A DNA stretch of 46,713 bases from a phage. This document shows positions 21,918 to 44,987 of this stretch, piece after piece. Position numbers and translations under genes: made by a program. The stretch is taken from sequence record PZ379183.1, one strand, 5' to 3'. Every line of letters begins with the position of its first letter. Positions within the stretch are counted from its first letter, which is position 1. Below the pieces are notes generated by a model, which saw only the letters and a program-made list of their open reading frames with translations, did not search any database and was not told the DNA's origin.

Positions 21918-24900
21918 ATGGCACAAATGGTCAAAACAAATGCGGAGCTATGTGATATGGCGGAAGAAATTAAGATTTATGGAAGTAAGGGCGGACAGCC
22001 AAAGCAGCACCAACCTGTAGAGCAGCCTGATAACCTGATATCCGTAAACAAGGTTAAGGTTTTGCTAGCTGTTTCTGATGGTGAGGTTGATAGCTCATTC
22101 TCCCTAAAGGACCTTTACCTTGCTGACGTTCCTGTACAGAACCAGAATGGCACATACAACTACGAGGGTGTAACGGCAGAGTTTCGCCCTGGCACACAGA
22201 GTCAGGATTACATTGCCGGGCTAGAGGGTGCTAACTCGGAAGTGCAAGTGAACAGGGAGATTAAAAACTCAACTCCTTACATCATTGCTGTTAATAACAC
22301 CCAGCTATCAGCGATTAGGGTTAAGCTGTTTTGGCCTCGTCTGATTAATCAGGAAAGTAACGGAGATCTTAACGGTACCACTTGCGAGTATGCGATTGAC
22401 CTGTCCGTTGATGGCGCTACATACACTGAGTACACGCGCGGAGTAGCTAATGGCAAGACAACTAGCGGGTACGACAGAAGTATCAGGGTTAACCTTCCTG
22501 CTGAGTTCTCGAGTGCGTTGGTGAGGGTTCGTAAGATCACGGCAGATTCAGAAAGTTCGACGCTGGTTAACAATATGCAAATTACGACCTATCAGGAAGT
22601 AATTGATGCGAAATTCCGCTACCCACTTACAGCGCTGGTTTACGTTGAGTTCAGTTCTGACCTCTTCCCTAACGGAATCCCGACGATTTCAATCAAGAAG
22701 AAGTGGAAGTTGATTCGCGTTCCAACTAACTACAACCCAGAGACAAGGACTTACAGCGGAACCTGGAACGGCACCTTTAAGATGGCGTATTCCAATAACC
22801 CGGCGTGGGTTCTTTACGACTTGGTGACGAATCAGCGTTACGGACTTGACCAGCGAGAGCTTGGCATTACTATTGATAAGTGGGGTCTGTATGAGGCGGC
22901 GCAATTCTGTGACCAGATGGTTCCAGATGGTAAGGGTGGAGTTGAGCCGCGCTACCTGTGTGATGTTGTCATTCAGCAGAAAGTTGAAGCATATCAGGTA
23001 ATCCGTGATATTTGCTCTATCTTCCGTGGGCTGACATTCTATGACGGCGAGCAGATAGGGATTGTTGTCGATAAGCCGCGTCAACCATCGTACGTATTCA
23101 CCAATGACAACGTTGTTGATGGATTGTTCAACCGTACATTTGGTAGCGATAAGTCACTTTACACGGTTGCCAACGTTCAGTTTGATGACGTTGAAAACTC
23201 ATACCAACAGGATGTTGAGCCAGTATTCGAGTTAGAGGCAACAAGGCGTTTTGGTTACAACCCGGTCGACCTTACAGCTATTGGATGTACTCGCAGGAGT
23301 GAGGCAAACCGCCGCGGGCGCTGGTTATTAAAGACGAACATTCGCAGCGAGACTATTAGTTTCACTACTGGTCTGGAAGGTATGATTCCAATGATTGGTG
23401 AGGTTATTGCAGTTAATGACCAGGCATGGTCTAGCAACTACACCCTTAACCTTTCTGGTCGTATCGAGTCAGTAAGTGGGTTGCAAGTTTTTGTGCCATT
23501 TAAGATTGATGCTACTGCTGGCGACAGGATTCTAATAAACAAGCCTGATGGAATGCCGGAGTACAGGACCATTGCATCTGTATCTGAAGATGGTATGACG
23601 CTGCAACTTAATACAGCGTTTAGCTTTACTCCTCAGCCTGACACAGTATTTGCGATTGATAAGGAAAATCTTGCTCTTCAGCAATATGTTGTGACCGGTA
23701 TTCAAAAAGCAGACAGCGATGGAGATGATGCGTTTGGTTACACGATTACCGCAGTTGAGTACGACCCGAACAAATACGACGAGATTGATTACGGCGTAAA
23801 CATTCAGGACAGGCCAACTTCAATCGTGGAGCCAGATACATTACTGGCACCCGAGAATGTTCAGGTTAGCAGTTACAGTAAGGTTGTTCAGGGTTTATCA
23901 GTTGAGACAATGGTAATCACGTGGGACAAGGTTCAGTACGCGAAAACCTACACGGTACAGTGGCGCAAGGAGAACGGAAACTGGATTAACGTGCCGCGCA
24001 CAGCAAGCACAGAGGTTGATATTGAAGGTATCTATGCCGGAATTTACCAGGTTCGCGTAAGGGCCGTTTCTGATACTGAAAACGTATCCGCATGGTCTGA
24101 CATTGTTTCAGTAAGCCTCACAGGCAAGATTGGGACCCCTTCTTCACCTACAGTAATCACCGCTTCAGATGATGAAATATTCGGCATTAGGGTTAAGTGG
24201 GGATTTCCTGAAAACTCAGCCGATACGTCATACACTGAATTGCAGCAAGTAGCCGACAATGGTGATGGTACTTATACACCAGAGAATGCTAGCCTTCTGA
24301 CTCTGGTGCCTTACCCGAGTTACGAGTACTGGCATACTACACTTCCTGCTGGAAAGGTCATCTGGTACAGGGCGCGACTGATTGACAAGATTGGTAACGT
24401 CTCACCATGGACTGATTTTGTAAGGGGTATGGCAAGCGATGATGTGTCGTCAATCATTGGTGATATTAAGGTTGATATAGAAAACTCAGATGGGTTCAAG
24501 TATCTCCAACAGAATGCCATTGAGTCAAACGGAGCTATTCAGGCGCAAGCGGAATCAATAATTGAGAACGCCCTGGCTAATGATGGTGACGTGCGTAGAA
24601 TGACGAAGGAAAACGGCAAGAGGAAGGCCGAATTTGTTCAGGCTGTGAATCTTATCGCCGATGAAGAAAGGGCTCGCGTAGAGGCTCTGACGCAGCTTAA
24701 GGCGCAGATTGATGATGAGATTGTAGCTTCATTGACAAGGATTGATACGGCGCTAGCGGAAGAGACGCAAGCAAGGACCACTGCGGACACTGCTTTATCT
24801 GCAAGGCTAGGTGATAATGAGGCTGCGTTAAATGAGAAGTTGGACACTTACGTTACTGCCGATTCAATTGGTGCTCAGTACGGGATTAAACTTGGCCTCA

Positions 24901-25343
24901 AATACAATGGCGTTGAGTACAGTTCTGGCATGAGTATGGAGCTAACTGGTTCTGATGGCAATGTTCGTAGTCAGGTCATCTTTGATGCTAACAGGTTAGC
25001 AATCAGTAACGGCATTAGCTCTGGATCCGGTCAGTGGTCATTGCCTTTCGTAGTTGAAGGTAATCAGGTATTCATTCAAAGCGCAGTGATTCAGGATGGT
25101 TCAATCACTAACGCGAAGATTGGTAACCGGATTCAATCTAATAACTACGTGGCTGGTTCTCAGGGTTGGGCCATTGATAAGTCAGGCAGTGCGGAACTTA
25201 ACAATGCAACTGTAAGGGGTAGTCTGTACGCAAGTAACGGCAACTTTGCGTTTAACGGAACCAACAACACTGTTCAGATTAACAATAATGGAATTACAGT
25301 TAATTTACCGAATGGTGGAAGGGTTGTAGTTGGAGTGTGGTAA
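21918..25343 (+). CDS. tail tip / central fibre protein (lambda gpJ-like host specificity protein)
   Basis: 1141-aa ORF at the end of the tail module; length and position as for J-family proteins. Confidence 0.8.
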   Translation: MAQMVKTNAELCDMAEEIKIYGSKGGQPKQHQPVEQPDNLISVNKVKVLLAVSDGEVDSSFSLKDLYLADVPVQNQNGTYNYEGVTAEFRPGTQSQDYIAGLEGANSEVQVNREIKNSTPYIIAVNNTQLSAIRVKLFWPRLINQESNGDLNGTTCEYAIDLSVDGATYTEYTRGVANGKTTSGYDRSIRVNLPAEFSSALVRVRKITADSESSTLVNNMQITTYQEVIDAKFRYPLTALVYVEFSSDLFPNGIPTISIKKKWKLIRVPTNYNPETRTYSGTWNGTFKMAYSNNPAWVLYDLVTNQRYGLDQRELGITIDKWGLYEAAQFCDQMVPDGKGGVEPRYLCDVVIQQKVEAYQVIRDICSIFRGLTFYDGEQIGIVVDKPRQPSYVFTNDNVVDGLFNRTFGSDKSLYTVANVQFDDVENSYQQDVEPVFELEATRRFGYNPVDLTAIGCTRRSEANRRGRWLLKTNIRSETISFTTGLEGMIPMIGEVIAVNDQAWSSNYTLNLSGRIESVSGLQVFVPFKIDATAGDRILINKPDGMPEYRTIASVSEDGMTLQLNTAFSFTPQPDTVFAIDKENLALQQYVVTGIQKADSDGDDAFGYTITAVEYDPNKYDEIDYGVNIQDRPTSIVEPDTLLAPENVQVSSYSKVVQGLSVETMVITWDKVQYAKTYTVQWRKENGNWINVPRTASTEVDIEGIYAGIYQVRVRAVSDTENVSAWSDIVSVSLTGKIGTPSSPTVITASDDEIFGIRVKWGFPENSADTSYTELQQVADNGDGTYTPENASLLTLVPYPSYEYWHTTLPAGKVIWYRARLIDKIGNVSPWTDFVRGMASDDVSSIIGDIKVDIENSDGFKYLQQNAIESNGAIQAQAESIIENALANDGDVRRMTKENGKRKAEFVQAVNLIADEERARVEALTQLKAQIDDEIVASLTRIDTALAEETQARTTADTALSARLGDNEAALNEKLDTYVTADSIGAQYGIKLGLKYNGVEYSSGMSMELTGSDGNVRSQVIFDANRLAISNGISSGSGQWSLPFVVEGNQVFIQSAVIQDGSITNAKIGNRIQSNNYVAGSQGWAIDKSGSAELNNATVRGSLYASNGNFAFNGTNNTVQINNNGITVNLPNGGRVVVGVW

Positions 25344-25350
25344 ATGATTA

Positions 25351-25375
25351 GGCCCCTTTCGGGGCCTTTTCTTTT
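25351..25375. terminator. terminator hairpin between convergent genes
   Basis: GGCCCC-TTTC-GGGGCC hairpin followed by TTTTCTTTT. Confidence 0.7.
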
Positions 25376-26345
25376 AGTAGAAGTTTGGTATGAATGGTAG
25401 AGCCATTGATATGTTTGTGTCGAATGGGAATTGGGCCCCCGTCTGCGTTGAGTAGTTCCCTATCACAGTGCCTGGAACTGCCCTTACGGCACCACCAGAC
25501 ATGCATATTCCCTTGTACCTTAAGTTGTTATACCCTCCAGTAACTCTTGTTGTAGCGCCGCACCTGAGCAGTGGGAAGAACCCTCCATTTATTGACTGGA
25601 AACCATTGGTTATTTGTATAAAGCCACCAAGCACGAACGGTCGCCTGACGCTTGAAAAAACAATCTGTCCAGAACTATTAGACATTGTGAGTCCTGGGCC
25701 AGCTACTGGAGGGTCATTCCTGAATATCACTAACTGTACGTAAGTACTTGCTGCAACGTCATCTATGCCGCTGTAGTTTATGTTGCGGCACCAAATTGTA
25801 TTACCGTCGCTCTCCAGAGAAACGTTTGGGTTATCCCATTTACCAAATGGAATCCCACTGACTGGTAGTGAGGCGGCGCCGTTAACCTGTATTCCACCAA
25901 CCCATGCCGCAGACATTAACCGCGAATTGCTTGAAATTGCCAAAAAGTCAGTTGAGTTCTCAACCAGTATTCCTGGGCTTGATGAAGACGAGGCTGGGAG
26001 TATTTCAAAGCAATTTCCAGCAAAGTCAATTATACGACCTCTTGCGCCATTGAAGTCACTAAGCGTTATCCTGCCAGTTCCGTCATTTACCTTCTGGAAC
26101 CCGTTCATATAATAAACTTCAGGTACAACATCATAAGCGTCAACGTGCACAGCCTTTGTTGGAAGGCAGAATGCTGTTGAGCCTGGGGACATGGTTAAAC
26201 CAAAATCCCATGATGATGCTGGCGTCGAAAGTCCATTGGTATTTATTGAGCCAGTCACAGCGGGCGCTCTTAATCCTGCCGTTATTTCCATAGGTGGCCT
26301 TCCATCATTAAGGTCAATCAATATTCCTTGAGGCATTATTTCCAC
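25374..26345 (-). CDS. putative receptor-binding / tail fibre-associated protein
   Basis: 323-aa Gly/Ser/Asn/Thr-rich ORF convergent with the J-like gene and co-oriented with the lipoprotein gene; function inferred from context only. Confidence 0.35.
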
Positions 26346-26581
26346 TCCTTAGACCCATGGTCAGCAACAGAGCCACCGTAACCGCCGCCAGCCTTGCTCT
26401 CAATACCAGCGTATCGCACATCAACTTCACCAGACGGTACAACCACACCATTTTCCCATTTAGCCACGCACACGCCGTTTGCTTGCGTTGCACACCATCC
26501 GTCAGGACGCGGAGCAGAAGAACAACCCACCATCATGATTGCTGCTGCTGCGATGATTGAAAGTTTGATTAAGTTAGTCAT
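26336..26581 (-). CDS. small lipoprotein, Cor/Llp-like superinfection-exclusion candidate
   Basis: N-terminal signal peptide with lipobox-like MVGC, mature part ~60 aa with Cys pair; AAGGAATACGAAAATG start with own motif-type promoter. Confidence 0.55.
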
Positions 26582-26649
26582 TTTCGTATTCCTTAGAAGG
26601 TGTGTTTCGTTTCAATGGAGTAATGATATCTCATCCTTGAGATTTGTCT

Positions 26650-26665
26650 TTAGCAATTGGTGCTA
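26650..26665 (-). promoter_or_regulatory. TAGCAC-N5-GCTAA motif copy (minus strand, TAGCACCAATTGCTAA)
   Basis: Encodes the C-terminal STNC and stop of the methyltransferase; followed on the minus strand by GATATC-type element and CATTGAAACGAAACACA leader. Confidence 0.5.
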
Positions 26666-27339
26666 TTTGCAATGAAGACGGCTTTTGCAAAACCGCGAGG
26701 AGTTAGGCTGCGAATTACCTTTGTCTTATTGCTCTTCCCGCCTAGCTTCTTGTATTGGTCAGAGAATCCACCGTTAACGTCCACTGGAATTGCCTCTGGC
26801 CATTTAAACCCATTGCCATACCAAATGCATGTCTTCTTGGGATATGCGTCTTTTGGCTTTATTAGGTCGCTAAAAAACGGGTGTAAATCATCTTCCGGCA
26901 AATAGCCTCCGTATTCATATGGGTGGAAGGTGTTATCAGGTTTTCGCCAAAGTGATGACAGTACGCTGATTGGGTTCTCGATCATGTATGGTACTCCGTA
27001 TTTTTCAGCAAGATTAAAAGCAATCTTGCACGTCTCCGCAGCTTCAATTTGGAAGTTAGGGTTAGCTATACACTTGCGTTCAAAGTGTCTTGATCCGCTC
27101 ACGGCTAAGTCAGTGCATGGAGGGAACGCCATTATAAAATCAGGTTTCACATCAAAATCGAAGTCAGCATCTATCCATGCGTTAACGTATGTGATGTTCT
27201 CATGCTCAACCTTTGCATTTAAGTCACTGTAGCTGCCGTGGTCAGACTCATCAAAGTTGAAACAGTAGCAAGTGTGGCCAGCTTCAGCCCAATCCTTTAC
27301 CGCCAGACCAGAACCATCAAATAAAGACCAGATAACCAT
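26650..27339 (-). CDS. DNA (cytosine-5) methyltransferase (putative, short)
   Basis: N-terminal SLFDGSG (SAM-binding motif I), FPPC (Pro-Cys catalytic motif) and IENP (ENV-like motif) in C5-MTase order. Confidence 0.55.
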   Translation of the reverse strand: MVIWSLFDGSGLAVKDWAEAGHTCYCFNFDESDHGSYSDLNAKVEHENITYVNAWIDADFDFDVKPDFIMAFPPCTDLAVSGSRHFERKCIANPNFQIEAAETCKIAFNLAEKYGVPYMIENPISVLSSLWRKPDNTFHPYEYGGYLPEDDLHPFFSDLIKPKDAYPKKTCIWYGNGFKWPEAIPVDVNGGFSDQYKKLGGKSNKTKVIRSLTPRGFAKAVFIANSTNC

Positions 27340-27397
27340 TTTAAAATTCTCTCTCGTTGTTTGTGTTGCTAACTATACCCGGTTTTGCGGATCAGTT

Positions 27398-27413
27398 TTA
27401 GCAATTAGTGCTA
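27398..27413 (-). promoter_or_regulatory. TAGCAC-N5-GCTAA motif copy (minus strand)
   Basis: TAGCACTAATTGCTAA on minus strand about 60 nt upstream of the methyltransferase start. Confidence 0.45.
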
Positions 27414-27439
27414 TGTTTACGCGTAACCGATGTAACTCG

Positions 27440-27720
27440 ATGTATGCAATCTCATCCGCGAAAAATGATATACGCAATGTTACGCCAATTTACGCATTGG
27501 TTACATTAAAATATATATATATATCAACCTTTTACTCTTATTATTATTATTATATATATTACTATGTATATCATGTAACTGCTCTTATGGAGTGTTTCGG
27601 TTATAATTTTAATATCATGTGGATTTATACAGTATTGCGCGGTAGCTATACCAATGCACCCTCAGCAATAAATGATATACATGATATACGCACTATTTAC
27701 ATTGAGCTATAGCTTGGCTC
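27440..27720. repeat. AT-rich iteron and microsatellite region
   Basis: TACGC repeated three times at 10-bp spacing (27474-27500), GATATACGCA copies at 27466 and 27681, (AT)n and (TTA)5 tracts; 85-bp segment 27491-27575 duplicated at 46416-46500. Confidence 0.7.
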
Positions 27721-27883
27721 AGGTACCAAAAAACGTAACTAGTTCCAATGTACACACGGAATTACAAGAATTCACGCGTAAACTTAAATCAACGATTGGC
27801 GAAACCAATTGGACTGGGTGCGGCGCTGAATATATAGTTAAACCATCGAAAGCAAGCAAGCAAGCAAACAGAGAGATACAGAA

Positions 27884-40773: not shown

Positions 40774-40831
40774 ACAATCGCCGGAGTAATCCGGCATAAT
40801 TACTACATCGAAAACAACAGAGGATTCAAAA

Positions 40832-44928: not shown

Positions 44929-44987
44929 GATCTCTTGCTCTCTTTCGTTTCGATGGAGTAAATATACGCCATCCGTGGCGGTGAGTT

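Follow-up and report, generated by a model that had tools for sequence, protein, structure and literature searches.

Analysis of a 46,713-nt phage sequence (record PZ379183.1; this whole stretch is called the window here) revealed three co-oriented minus-strand open reading frames (ORFs) facing a J-like tail tip gene. The ORFs lie where a preliminary description of this DNA had placed them, at 25374..26345 (323 amino acids when read from a GTG codon), 26336..26581 (81 amino acids) and 26650..27339 (229 amino acids). They are convergent with the J-like gene (21918..25343, plus strand), also as described, and the gap between this gene and the nearest ORF is 30 nt. Gene structures, family memberships, identities and motif statistics were established directly on this DNA.

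The J-like protein (1141 amino acids) matches the Pfam families FNIII-A_GpJ (1e-39), Phage_Tail_Tip (5e-38) and Phage-tail_3 (4e-17) as well as PHROG 31 'central tail fiber J'. It is 83.8% identical to Rtp43, 84.6% to the J protein of OzMSK and 97% to that of phage ES, and it is presumed to be the platform that carries the receptor-binding protein (RBP). A GC-rich hairpin (AGGCCCC-TTTC-GGGGCCT, 25350..25367) occupies the space between the convergent genes. The terminator scan of the plus strand found seven pairs, six of them GC, with a T-rich tail, and SU57 carries annotated ARNold terminators in either direction at the corresponding site; the hairpin is probably a bidirectional intrinsic terminator. 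No NCBIfam family matched any of the three cassette proteins. Plus-strand ORFs of up to 110 amino acids occur within the three minus-strand genes. These were dismissed as shadows of the latter, given the strong family matches on the minus strand and the lack of any annotated plus-strand gene here in the five relatives examined.

Probable receptor-binding protein

The ORF of 323 amino acids named in the preliminary description is present, but its GTG start at 26345 is less likely than the ATG at 26336. The gene therefore most likely spans 25374..26336 (minus strand) and encodes 320 amino acids, because this ATG overlaps the stop codon of the lipoprotein gene by 1 nt (TAATG) and is preceded by AAGGAG, and because the orthologues of OzMSK, ES and SU57 are annotated with a length of 963 nt and likewise overlap the lipoprotein gene by 1 nt. 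The reported richness in glycine, serine and asparagine was reproduced (11.9%, 10.0% and 7.5%, respectively). The protein belongs to the DUF6453 / Rtp44 / RBP_Oeko family. It matches PF20051 (DUF6453) at 8e-138 with 459 bits against a gathering cut-off of 25, its residues 7-300 aligning with profile positions 1-291 of 291 and hence with the full length of the family. Among PDB sequences it matches 9rpt_C, the Oekolampad protein, at E = 6e-67 (query residues 5-323, chain residues 2-321).

Comparison with individual homologues revealed 99.7% identity to the protein of phage ES, 93.1% to that of OzMSK (OzMSK/MSK gp038, an LptD RBP of the same length), 45.7% to that of Oekolampad and 41.3% to Rtp44, a different RBP subtype of 311 amino acids. 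Identity to the two proteins nearest to structural work, Rtp44 and the Oekolampad protein, is thus only 41-46%. Against the Oekolampad protein, conservation peaks in the first 40 residues (60%), and against Rtp44 the same residues share the top value (50%), which fits the placement of conserved RBP residues at the tail-proximal base (Black 2025). Gln299 of the Oekolampad protein, which contacts loop 4 of LptD in the structure, aligns with a glutamine in the window's RBP. The arrangement of the locus, with a 30-nt gap and convergence with J, is the same in Rtp, OzMSK, Bas01 and Bas18.

PHROG 1265 carries the description 'membrane protein' and the category moron, and RefSeq records use this label too, so the 320-amino-acid protein might be taken for a moron product absent from the virion. 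The label was rejected: the maximum Kyte-Doolittle value over 19 residues is 1.11, too low for a membrane-spanning segment, and the gene occupies the receptor-binding locus downstream of J. We regard a membrane moron as extremely improbable and retain the assignment as RBP.

Predicted exclusion lipoprotein

The middle gene (26336..26581, minus strand) encodes an 81-amino-acid precursor whose lipobox pattern fits (Cys20, Lys6), leaving a mature lipoprotein of 62 amino acids, in good agreement with the approximately 60 given earlier. It matches PF24052 over its full length (3e-40; 136.6 bits against a gathering cut-off of 27) and PDB chain 9rps_D, which is Rtp45, at 8e-38 with 85.5% identity. 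Cysteines occur at positions 20, 30 and 38, of which Cys30 and Cys38 are conserved and shared with Rtp45. The strand that pairs with LptD (residues 30-35) is shared as well and reads CATQAN, against CATQAS in Rtp45. The C-terminal segment is different and five residues longer than in Rtp45, which has KGSSGSVRDY. This subtype-specific tail co-varies with the RBP subtype in all six loci compared. OzMSK/MSK gp039 is 85.2% identical to the lipoprotein, has the same length and shows the same 1-nt overlap with the RBP gene.

Cor lipoproteins of phages phi80, N15 and T1 are small exclusion lipoproteins encoded near tail-tip genes. The lipoprotein had been called 'Cor/Llp-like', and this holds in the sense of a functional analogue but not as a sequence relationship, which was not detectable in Pfam, PHROG or PDB searches. 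Its match to PHROG 1119 'Cor' (E = 0.007) is confined to the signal peptide and lipobox (residues 6-34). Pfam gave no Cor or Llp family at E <= 0.1, and a phmmer search of PDB sequences with a limit of E <= 1 returned only Rtp45 and chance hits, with nothing besides Rtp45 at E < 0.3; the FhuA-Llp complex of PMC9586334 is expected, though unconfirmed, to be within the PDB sequences searched. The pair pb5 (oad) and Llp of phage T5, acting on FhuA, is alike in combining a separate tail-tip RBP with a small periplasm-facing lipoprotein that stops binding, according to PMC12685063, but no sequence relationship to it is detectable and the T5 receptor is a TonB-dependent transporter. The same paper contrasts the long-range allostery of Llp with a physical loop displacement by Rtp45; the published mechanism for the latter is steric, not allosteric.

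Predicted receptor and superinfection exclusion

The preliminary description proposed that the large protein determines receptor specificity, with the adjoining lipoprotein masking the receptor that the phage itself uses. The proposal holds, supported by close homology to experimentally characterised proteins, namely those of OzMSK and Oekolampad and Rtp45. Its candidate receptors, FhuA and BtuB, did not hold up. The type of locus predicts LptD instead, since the receptor can be predicted from the alleles of this locus, and the gene layout of LptD-linked loci is considerably different from that of loci for FhuA, BtuB, YncD and further receptors (Maffei 2021). AugustePiccard, in which LptD dependence is experimental, matches the window in locus position and arrangement, as do Rtp and OzMSK. 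The pairs rtp44/rtp45 of Rtp and bas01_0028/0029 of AugustePiccard share the locus, gene order and strand, being convergent with J and having the lipoprotein gene immediately upstream of the RBP gene. The Oekolampad (Bas18) RBP and bas18_0026 (PDB 9rpt, 9rpw, 9rqi) represent the same two families in the same arrangement downstream of J, although Oekolampad belongs to a different genus (Dhillonvirus) and its lipoprotein is only 35.6% identical to that of the window.

LptD dependence, complex structures and the exclusion mechanism come from published work on such homologues. OzMSK is unable to infect the loop-deletion mutants lptD delta(Y658-Y678)::H and delta(L394-V396)::Y, its LptD dependence being based on host mutants and not on direct binding of the RBP (PMC13035648). 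According to PMC12685063, the Oekolampad RBP was solved in complex with LptDE, and Rtp45, called a superinfection-exclusion factor there, was solved on the periplasmic face of LptDE with extracellular loop 4 of LptD displaced; the exclusion role of Rtp45 is presented there as a structural rationale. AF3 models of Rtp45 and of its LptDE complex are stated to be wrong in Dunbar 2025.

Two other receptor assignments were weighed. A Cor/Llp-family lipoprotein could inactivate a TonB-dependent transporter (FhuA or BtuB) to which the large protein, of 323 amino acids in that account, also binds, as the T5 oad/llp-like gene arrangement and the weak 'Cor' match would suggest. Cor does target FhuA; the match of the window's lipoprotein to it is limited to the signal peptide region, neither Pfam nor PDB searches place it with Cor or Llp, both proteins belong to families solved on LptDE, and the FhuA, BtuB and YncD loci have the different arrangement noted above. 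OzMSK was, moreover, isolated on T1-resistant (FhuA-disrupted) strains, and we consider a transporter receptor very improbable. It is somewhat less improbable, and still unlikely, that a divergent DUF6453 subtype binds a different outer-membrane protein, or requires a second receptor, in the natural host. RBP tips evolve fast, the subtype is divergent (41% identity to Rtp44), and related proteins are found in phages of Klebsiella, Vibrio and Yersinia as well as in podophages with unknown receptor. Against this stand the 93% identity to the counterpart in OzMSK, which depends on LptD, the co-encoded lipoprotein that is so close to LptDE-binding Rtp45, and the fact that members as distant as the Rtp44 and Oekolampad types all map to LptD. 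LptD is hence predicted as the receptor of the RBP, and the lipoprotein is predicted to exclude superinfection by masking LptD.

Overall, with a probability of about 0.9, the phage is an Rtp-like coliphage (Braunvirinae, Drexlerviridae) and the locus is its central-tail-fibre locus for host recognition, with an LptD-binding RBP, a receptor-blocking lipoprotein and a methyltransferase candidate. For the PZ379183.1 phage itself, receptor identity, exclusion phenotype, promoter activity and methyltransferase activity are predictions from its sequence. The 320-amino-acid beta-sandwich protein, a separate RBP, would be docked at the distal end of the J-like tail tip through its conserved N-terminal part. 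Its opposite end would enter the LptD barrel, part of the LptDE lipopolysaccharide translocon, from the extracellular side, so that LptD would be the terminal receptor. The mature lipoprotein, made in the infected cell and lipid-anchored, would bind the periplasmic face of LptDE beside LptE and LptM, where its beta-hairpin would push extracellular loop 4 of LptD outwards, so that the receptor could not adopt the conformation that the RBP needs. Blocking of the receptor would exclude superinfection and spare progeny from loss on cell debris. The lipoprotein and RBP genes would be translationally coupled through the TAATG overlap, behind a phage-specific promoter-type box.

Promoter-type boxes and the methyltransferase slot

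The lipoprotein gene had been credited with its own motif-type promoter, and a promoter-type element is indeed present upstream of it (26606..26667, minus strand). It contains one copy, AATAGCACCAATTGCTAA at 26650-26667, of an 18-nt box, AATAGCACnAATTGCTAA, present in 14 copies in the window where 0.19 would be expected. A hairpin, ATCTCAaggaTGAGAT, follows 3' of the box at 26628-26643, then a -10-like TATCAT at 26623-26628 and a conserved leader, ATTACTCCATTGAAACGAA, at 26606-26624, the leader motif having three copies against 0.03 expected. Rtp, ES, SU57, OzMSK and Bas01 all have the conserved element, whether or not a methyltransferase gene lies upstream. The promoter scan gave a match at 26650..26623. 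The -35 region is poor (AAGACA), and promoter-like sites found by the scan in this region were no more numerous than in shuffled sequence; promoter function is proposed because of conservation and repetition. A second copy of the element (27372..27415, minus strand), which the preliminary description did not mention, precedes the methyltransferase gene, with the box CATAGCACTAATTGCTAA at 27398-27415 followed by 20 nt and then TATAGT (27372-27377).

The spacer palindrome ATCTCA-N4-TGAGAT was considered as a repeated operator and rejected, since the window has a single copy, which is no more than chance would give. The repeated element near it is the neighbouring 18-nt box. Wietzorrek et al., describing the Rtp genome in 2006, reportedly noted conserved inverted repeats and a putative regulator, Rtp52.

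The slot between the two boxes varies among relatives. It holds a Dcm-like gene here and in Bas01, an unrelated PF01555-type methyltransferase gene in OzMSK, and none in Rtp, ES and SU57. The unrelated methyltransferase genes are flanked by two copies of the box, which supplies their final five codons and stop; in the window, the last codons and the TAA stop lie inside the box at 26650-26667. The OzMSK methyltransferase accordingly shares with that of the window only its last residues, INSTNC, which the box encodes. It is conceivable, though improbable, that the box is also a recombination joint for cassette swapping in Braunvirinae besides a promoter or operator. Another such possibility is that the lipoprotein's C-terminal tail adjusts exclusion between phages that target LptD.

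The slot gene of the window (26650..27339, minus strand, 229 amino acids) had been named a C5-methyltransferase candidate. The fold and motifs bear this out, but the score lies under the Pfam threshold (PF00145, 16.4 bits against a gathering cut-off of 22, over the N-terminal 85 residues only). In 8 of 25 homologues PF00145 matched at E <= 0.01 (best 1.3e-6). The C5-methyltransferase consensus comprises FxGxG in motif I, PC with the catalytic cysteine in motif IV and ENV in motif VI. Residues F7-G9-S10-G11 (motif I), P74-C75 (motif IV) and E121-N122-P123 (motif VI) are invariant in 25 sequences, and the protein agrees with the C5-methyltransferase fold. The C-terminal GFAKAV bears only a loose resemblance to GNAV of motif X. 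Classification relied on fold and motifs because searches of PDB sequences, by phmmer and by a 25-sequence family profile, returned nothing. The protein is 93% identical to the "Dcm-like" gene product of AugustePiccard.

It is plausible that this minimal Dcm-like protein is a cytosine-C5 methyltransferase. There is an appreciable, though minor, chance that it is instead an inactive remnant, an RNA methyltransferase or an enzyme that attaches a different group at C5, considering that it is about 100 amino acids shorter than typical C5 methyltransferases, that the region for a target-recognition domain is small (about 75 residues between WR at 131-132 and RSLTPR at 210-215), and that the PF00145 score and the PDB profile search gave the results above. 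Methyltransferase genes and restriction resistance also show no simple link (Maffei 2021). As a C5 methyltransferase behind its own box copy, the protein would probably modify phage DNA against host restriction.

The cassette type has already been described for Rtp-like (T1-family) coliphages, and our results do not extend the biology given in Maffei 2021, Black 2025 and Dunbar 2025; in the portions of this literature available, only the methyltransferase slot flanked by promoter-type boxes and the uncharacterised minimal Dcm-like family are not clearly covered. The sequence allows the prediction that this phage uses LptD, an outer-membrane protein that is essential and conserved, as its terminal receptor, and the lipoprotein is expected to cross-protect against other LptD-dependent phages. 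Possible uses are phage-resistant production strains, where the lptD loop-11 deletion known from the literature should be effective, and the swapping of RBP modules.

Gene layout and the receptor-binding protein

Analysis of the window confirmed three co-oriented minus-strand ORFs, exactly as located in the preliminary description, convergent with the J-like tail tip gene (21918..25343, 1141 aa; domains FNIII-A_GpJ, Phage-tail_3 and Phage_Tail_Tip). These are the receptor-binding ORF, first reported at 25374..26345 (323 aa from a GTG), the lipoprotein gene at 26336..26581 (81 aa) and the methyltransferase-like gene at 26650..27339 (229 aa). The 30-nt gap between the J-like and receptor-binding genes contains a GC-rich hairpin (25350-25367), and terminators are annotated on both strands at the equivalent position in SU57. 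The GTG start was revised. An ATG preceded by AAGGAG shares a nucleotide with the lipoprotein stop (TAATG), and annotations of the orthologues in OzMSK, ES and SU57 give a length of 963 nt and the same 1-nt overlap. The most likely extent of the gene is accordingly 25374..26336 (320 aa), with the GTG at 26345 falling within the Shine-Dalgarno sequence.

The 320-aa protein is a full-length member of DUF6453 (PF20051, 8e-138) and matches chain C of 9rpt, 9rpw and 9rqi (6e-67). Its identity is 99.7% to the phage ES protein, 93.1% to OzMSK, 45.7% to Oekolampad (Bas18) and 41.3% to Rtp44/AugustePiccard (Bas01). Conservation in the N-terminal 40 residues is the highest along the protein against Oekolampad (60%) and joint-highest against Rtp44 (50%); conserved residues are located at the tail-proximal base (Black et al. 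2025, PMC13035648). The match to Citrobacter phage HCF1 is limited to residues 1-52 (52.7% identity). Since HCF1 matches this segment only and the first 40 residues are best or joint-best conserved, the N-terminal ~50 aa (26180-26336) suggest a shared J-docking module fused to differing receptor-binding bodies. The label "membrane protein" (PHROG 1265 and several RefSeq records) is a misnomer, because no membrane-like hydrophobic segment was found in the receptor-binding protein.

Predicted receptor and putative exclusion lipoprotein

Maffei et al. 2021 (PMC8594841) showed that the terminal receptor can be predicted from the allele at the locus downstream of gpJ, and used spontaneous resistant mutants to assign AugustePiccard and Oekolampad to LptD, the outer-membrane LPS exporter. 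Two lptD loop-deletion mutants are not infected by OzMSK (Black et al. 2025, PMC13035648), which was isolated on FhuA-disrupted strains. The locus is of the LptD type, and FhuA and BtuB, suggested beforehand as candidate receptors, are unsupported. The proposal that the 320-aa protein determines receptor specificity is upheld by its identity to the protein of LptD-dependent OzMSK and by the 9rpt match.

The lipoprotein is a full-length member of PF24052 ("Phage lipoprotein", 3e-40) and matches 9rps chain D (8e-38), with identities of 85.5% to Rtp45, 85.2% to OzMSK, 80.3% to AugustePiccard and 35.6% to Oekolampad. All four structures come from Dunbar et al., PNAS 2025 (PMC12685063). Chain C of 9rpt is the Oekolampad protein in complex with LptDE, and chain D of 9rps is Rtp45, which phage Rtp encodes as its exclusion lipoprotein. 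Rtp45 occupies the periplasmic face of LptDE, flanked by LptE and LptM, and displaces LptD extracellular loop 4 outward by up to 20 Å, and therefore the receptor-binding protein cannot bind. Features of Rtp45 retained by the window lipoprotein are the Cys20 lipobox, a serine at +2, Cys30 and Cys38 (disulfide-bonded in Rtp45) and the LptD-pairing strand 30-35 (CATQAS in Rtp45, CATQAN here). This likeness to an LptDE-bound protein supports the idea that the adjacent lipoprotein masks the phage's own receptor.

The description of the lipoprotein as Cor/Llp-like holds for function, as T5 pb5/Llp follow the same logic, but not for descent: membership of the Cor or Llp families is not detectable. 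The sole Cor signal (PHROG 1119, E = 0.007) is confined to the signal peptide, no Pfam family beyond PF24052 was found at E <= 0.1, and nothing except Rtp45 was matched among PDB sequences. Furthermore, T5 Llp acts by allostery, whereas the mechanism published for Rtp45 is physical loop displacement.

Overall, we consider it highly probable (about 0.9) that the 320-aa protein, carried by the J-like tip, binds LptD as terminal receptor and that the co-translated lipoprotein masks LptDE from within the infected cell. Masking would occur by steric displacement of the loop. The individual steps were established in homologues and would extend to this phage by homology. Because published work already covers its protein families, gene arrangement, receptor and mechanism of exclusion, the cassette is an ordinary, already-explained feature; the reasoning of the preliminary description is sound, not new.

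Comparison of the window with five relatives' loci (L001, L002, L003, L004 and L005) revealed two forms of the lipoprotein C-terminal segment (26336-26400), tracking the receptor-binding-protein subtype in 6/6 loci. Loci with an OzMSK-type receptor-binding protein (320 aa) have the 81-aa lipoprotein, and those with an Rtp44-type protein (311 aa) have the 76-aa lipoprotein (segment KGSSGSVRDY); over their N-terminal 59 residues the two forms hardly differ. Simple linkage could account for this tracking, as could exclusion specific to the subtype.

Candidate methyltransferase, its slot and the promoter-type box

The 229-aa protein belongs to a family very common in phages (1,570 phage records; PHROG 757, 1e-84) and is 93% identical to an AugustePiccard gene product annotated as "Dcm-like C5 cytosine methyltransferase". 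Its earlier designation as a short C5-methyltransferase candidate is plausible. FDGSG (motif I), PPC with Cys75 (motif IV), ENP (motif VI) and RSLTPR (motif IX-like) are invariant, and AlphaFold2 gave a confident model (pLDDT 88). Evidence for PF00145 membership is mixed: the score of 16.4 bits is under the cut-off of 22, only 8/25 homologues match, and a search of PDB sequences with the family profile gave no match. It is filed as a putative minimal C5-methyltransferase-like enzyme, probably with an anti-restriction role; genes of this kind show no simple link to restriction resistance (Maffei et al. 2021, PMC8594841).

A stretch of about 75 nt ahead of the lipoprotein start is conserved in Rtp, ES, SU57, OzMSK and AugustePiccard, regardless of whether a methyltransferase gene lies upstream. 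The 5' part of this element is AATAGCACnAATTGCTAA, an 18-nt imperfect palindrome; the 3' part, ATTACTCCATYGAAACGAA, occurs again at 40799 and 44944. AATAGCACnAATTGCTAA is present in 14 copies in the window against 0.19 expected, on the plus strand at 1180, 1862, 3207, 6948, 29049, 32836, 37333 and 40756 and on the minus strand at 26650, 27398, 38405, 44208, 44988 and 46137. About 11 of the 14 have a TATAAT-like hexamer and a gene start about 20 nt downstream, which places the box centre near -42. The box probably acts as a phage-specific promoter or operator. The minus-strand box of the lipoprotein gene (26650-26667) is followed by TATCAT (26623-26628), in agreement with the putative promoter of its own proposed for this gene, and that of the methyltransferase gene (27398-27415, minus strand) by TATAGT (27372-27377). 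Wietzorrek's 2006 paper on the Rtp genome reportedly described inverted repeats conserved ahead of genes, together with a putative regulator, Rtp52; the box may correspond to those repeats.

In several copies a short hairpin separates the box from the -10-like hexamer, and its sequence varies while pairing is maintained (ATCTCAaggaTGAGAT at 26628-26643, GCCGGAgtaaTCCGGC at about 40777-40792 and CGCCAcggaTGGCG at about 44967-44980). At copies 1180 and 44208 a hairpin spans the -10.

The methyltransferase reading frame ends inside the box at 26650-26667, which provides its final codons and TAA stop (NSTNC*). In OzMSK an unrelated PF01555-type methyltransferase, also ending INSTNC, occupies the same slot (L002 6246-6938); the slot lies at L005 5001-5690 in Bas01, and it is empty in Rtp, ES and SU57. 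Lying between two copies of the box, the slot resembles a site of cassette exchange.

Relatives and wider distribution

The window represents a Braunvirinae genome that shares about 91% identity with phage ES across 73-85% of its length. Beyond the cassette lies a 540-nt AT-rich divergent intergenic region (27340-27883, GC about 0.39). It contains repeats of TGCGTATATCAT as well as runs of (TA)n and (AAT)n. Relatives have different small genes in this place, a KilA/anti-repressor-like gene in Bas01 and a 99-aa ORF in OzMSK. A 146-aa plus-strand ORF (27272..27712) containing a YYYYY run is probably spurious.

The E. coli-type LptD cassette also appears in records assigned to Pseudomonas syringae or Campylobacter jejuni hosts (PP134917.1, "Pseudomonas phage PsgS01F", and 14 "Campylobacter phage" records), with receptor-binding protein identity up to 94.4%. 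These are likely contaminating T1/Rtp-like coliphages or misassigned hosts.

Distant homologues of both proteins occur in Kuravirus-type podophages (phiEco32, ES17, YW01, KBNP1711 and ManiMatter_Bas94) and Klebsiella Webervirus-like siphophages (TAH8 and RCIP0011), at about 25-31% identity for the receptor-binding protein and 40-64% for the lipoprotein, with the two genes 10-45 kb apart. The BASEL-2025 paper makes no mention of LptD for Kuravirus. Both groups of phages may also engage or mask LptD.
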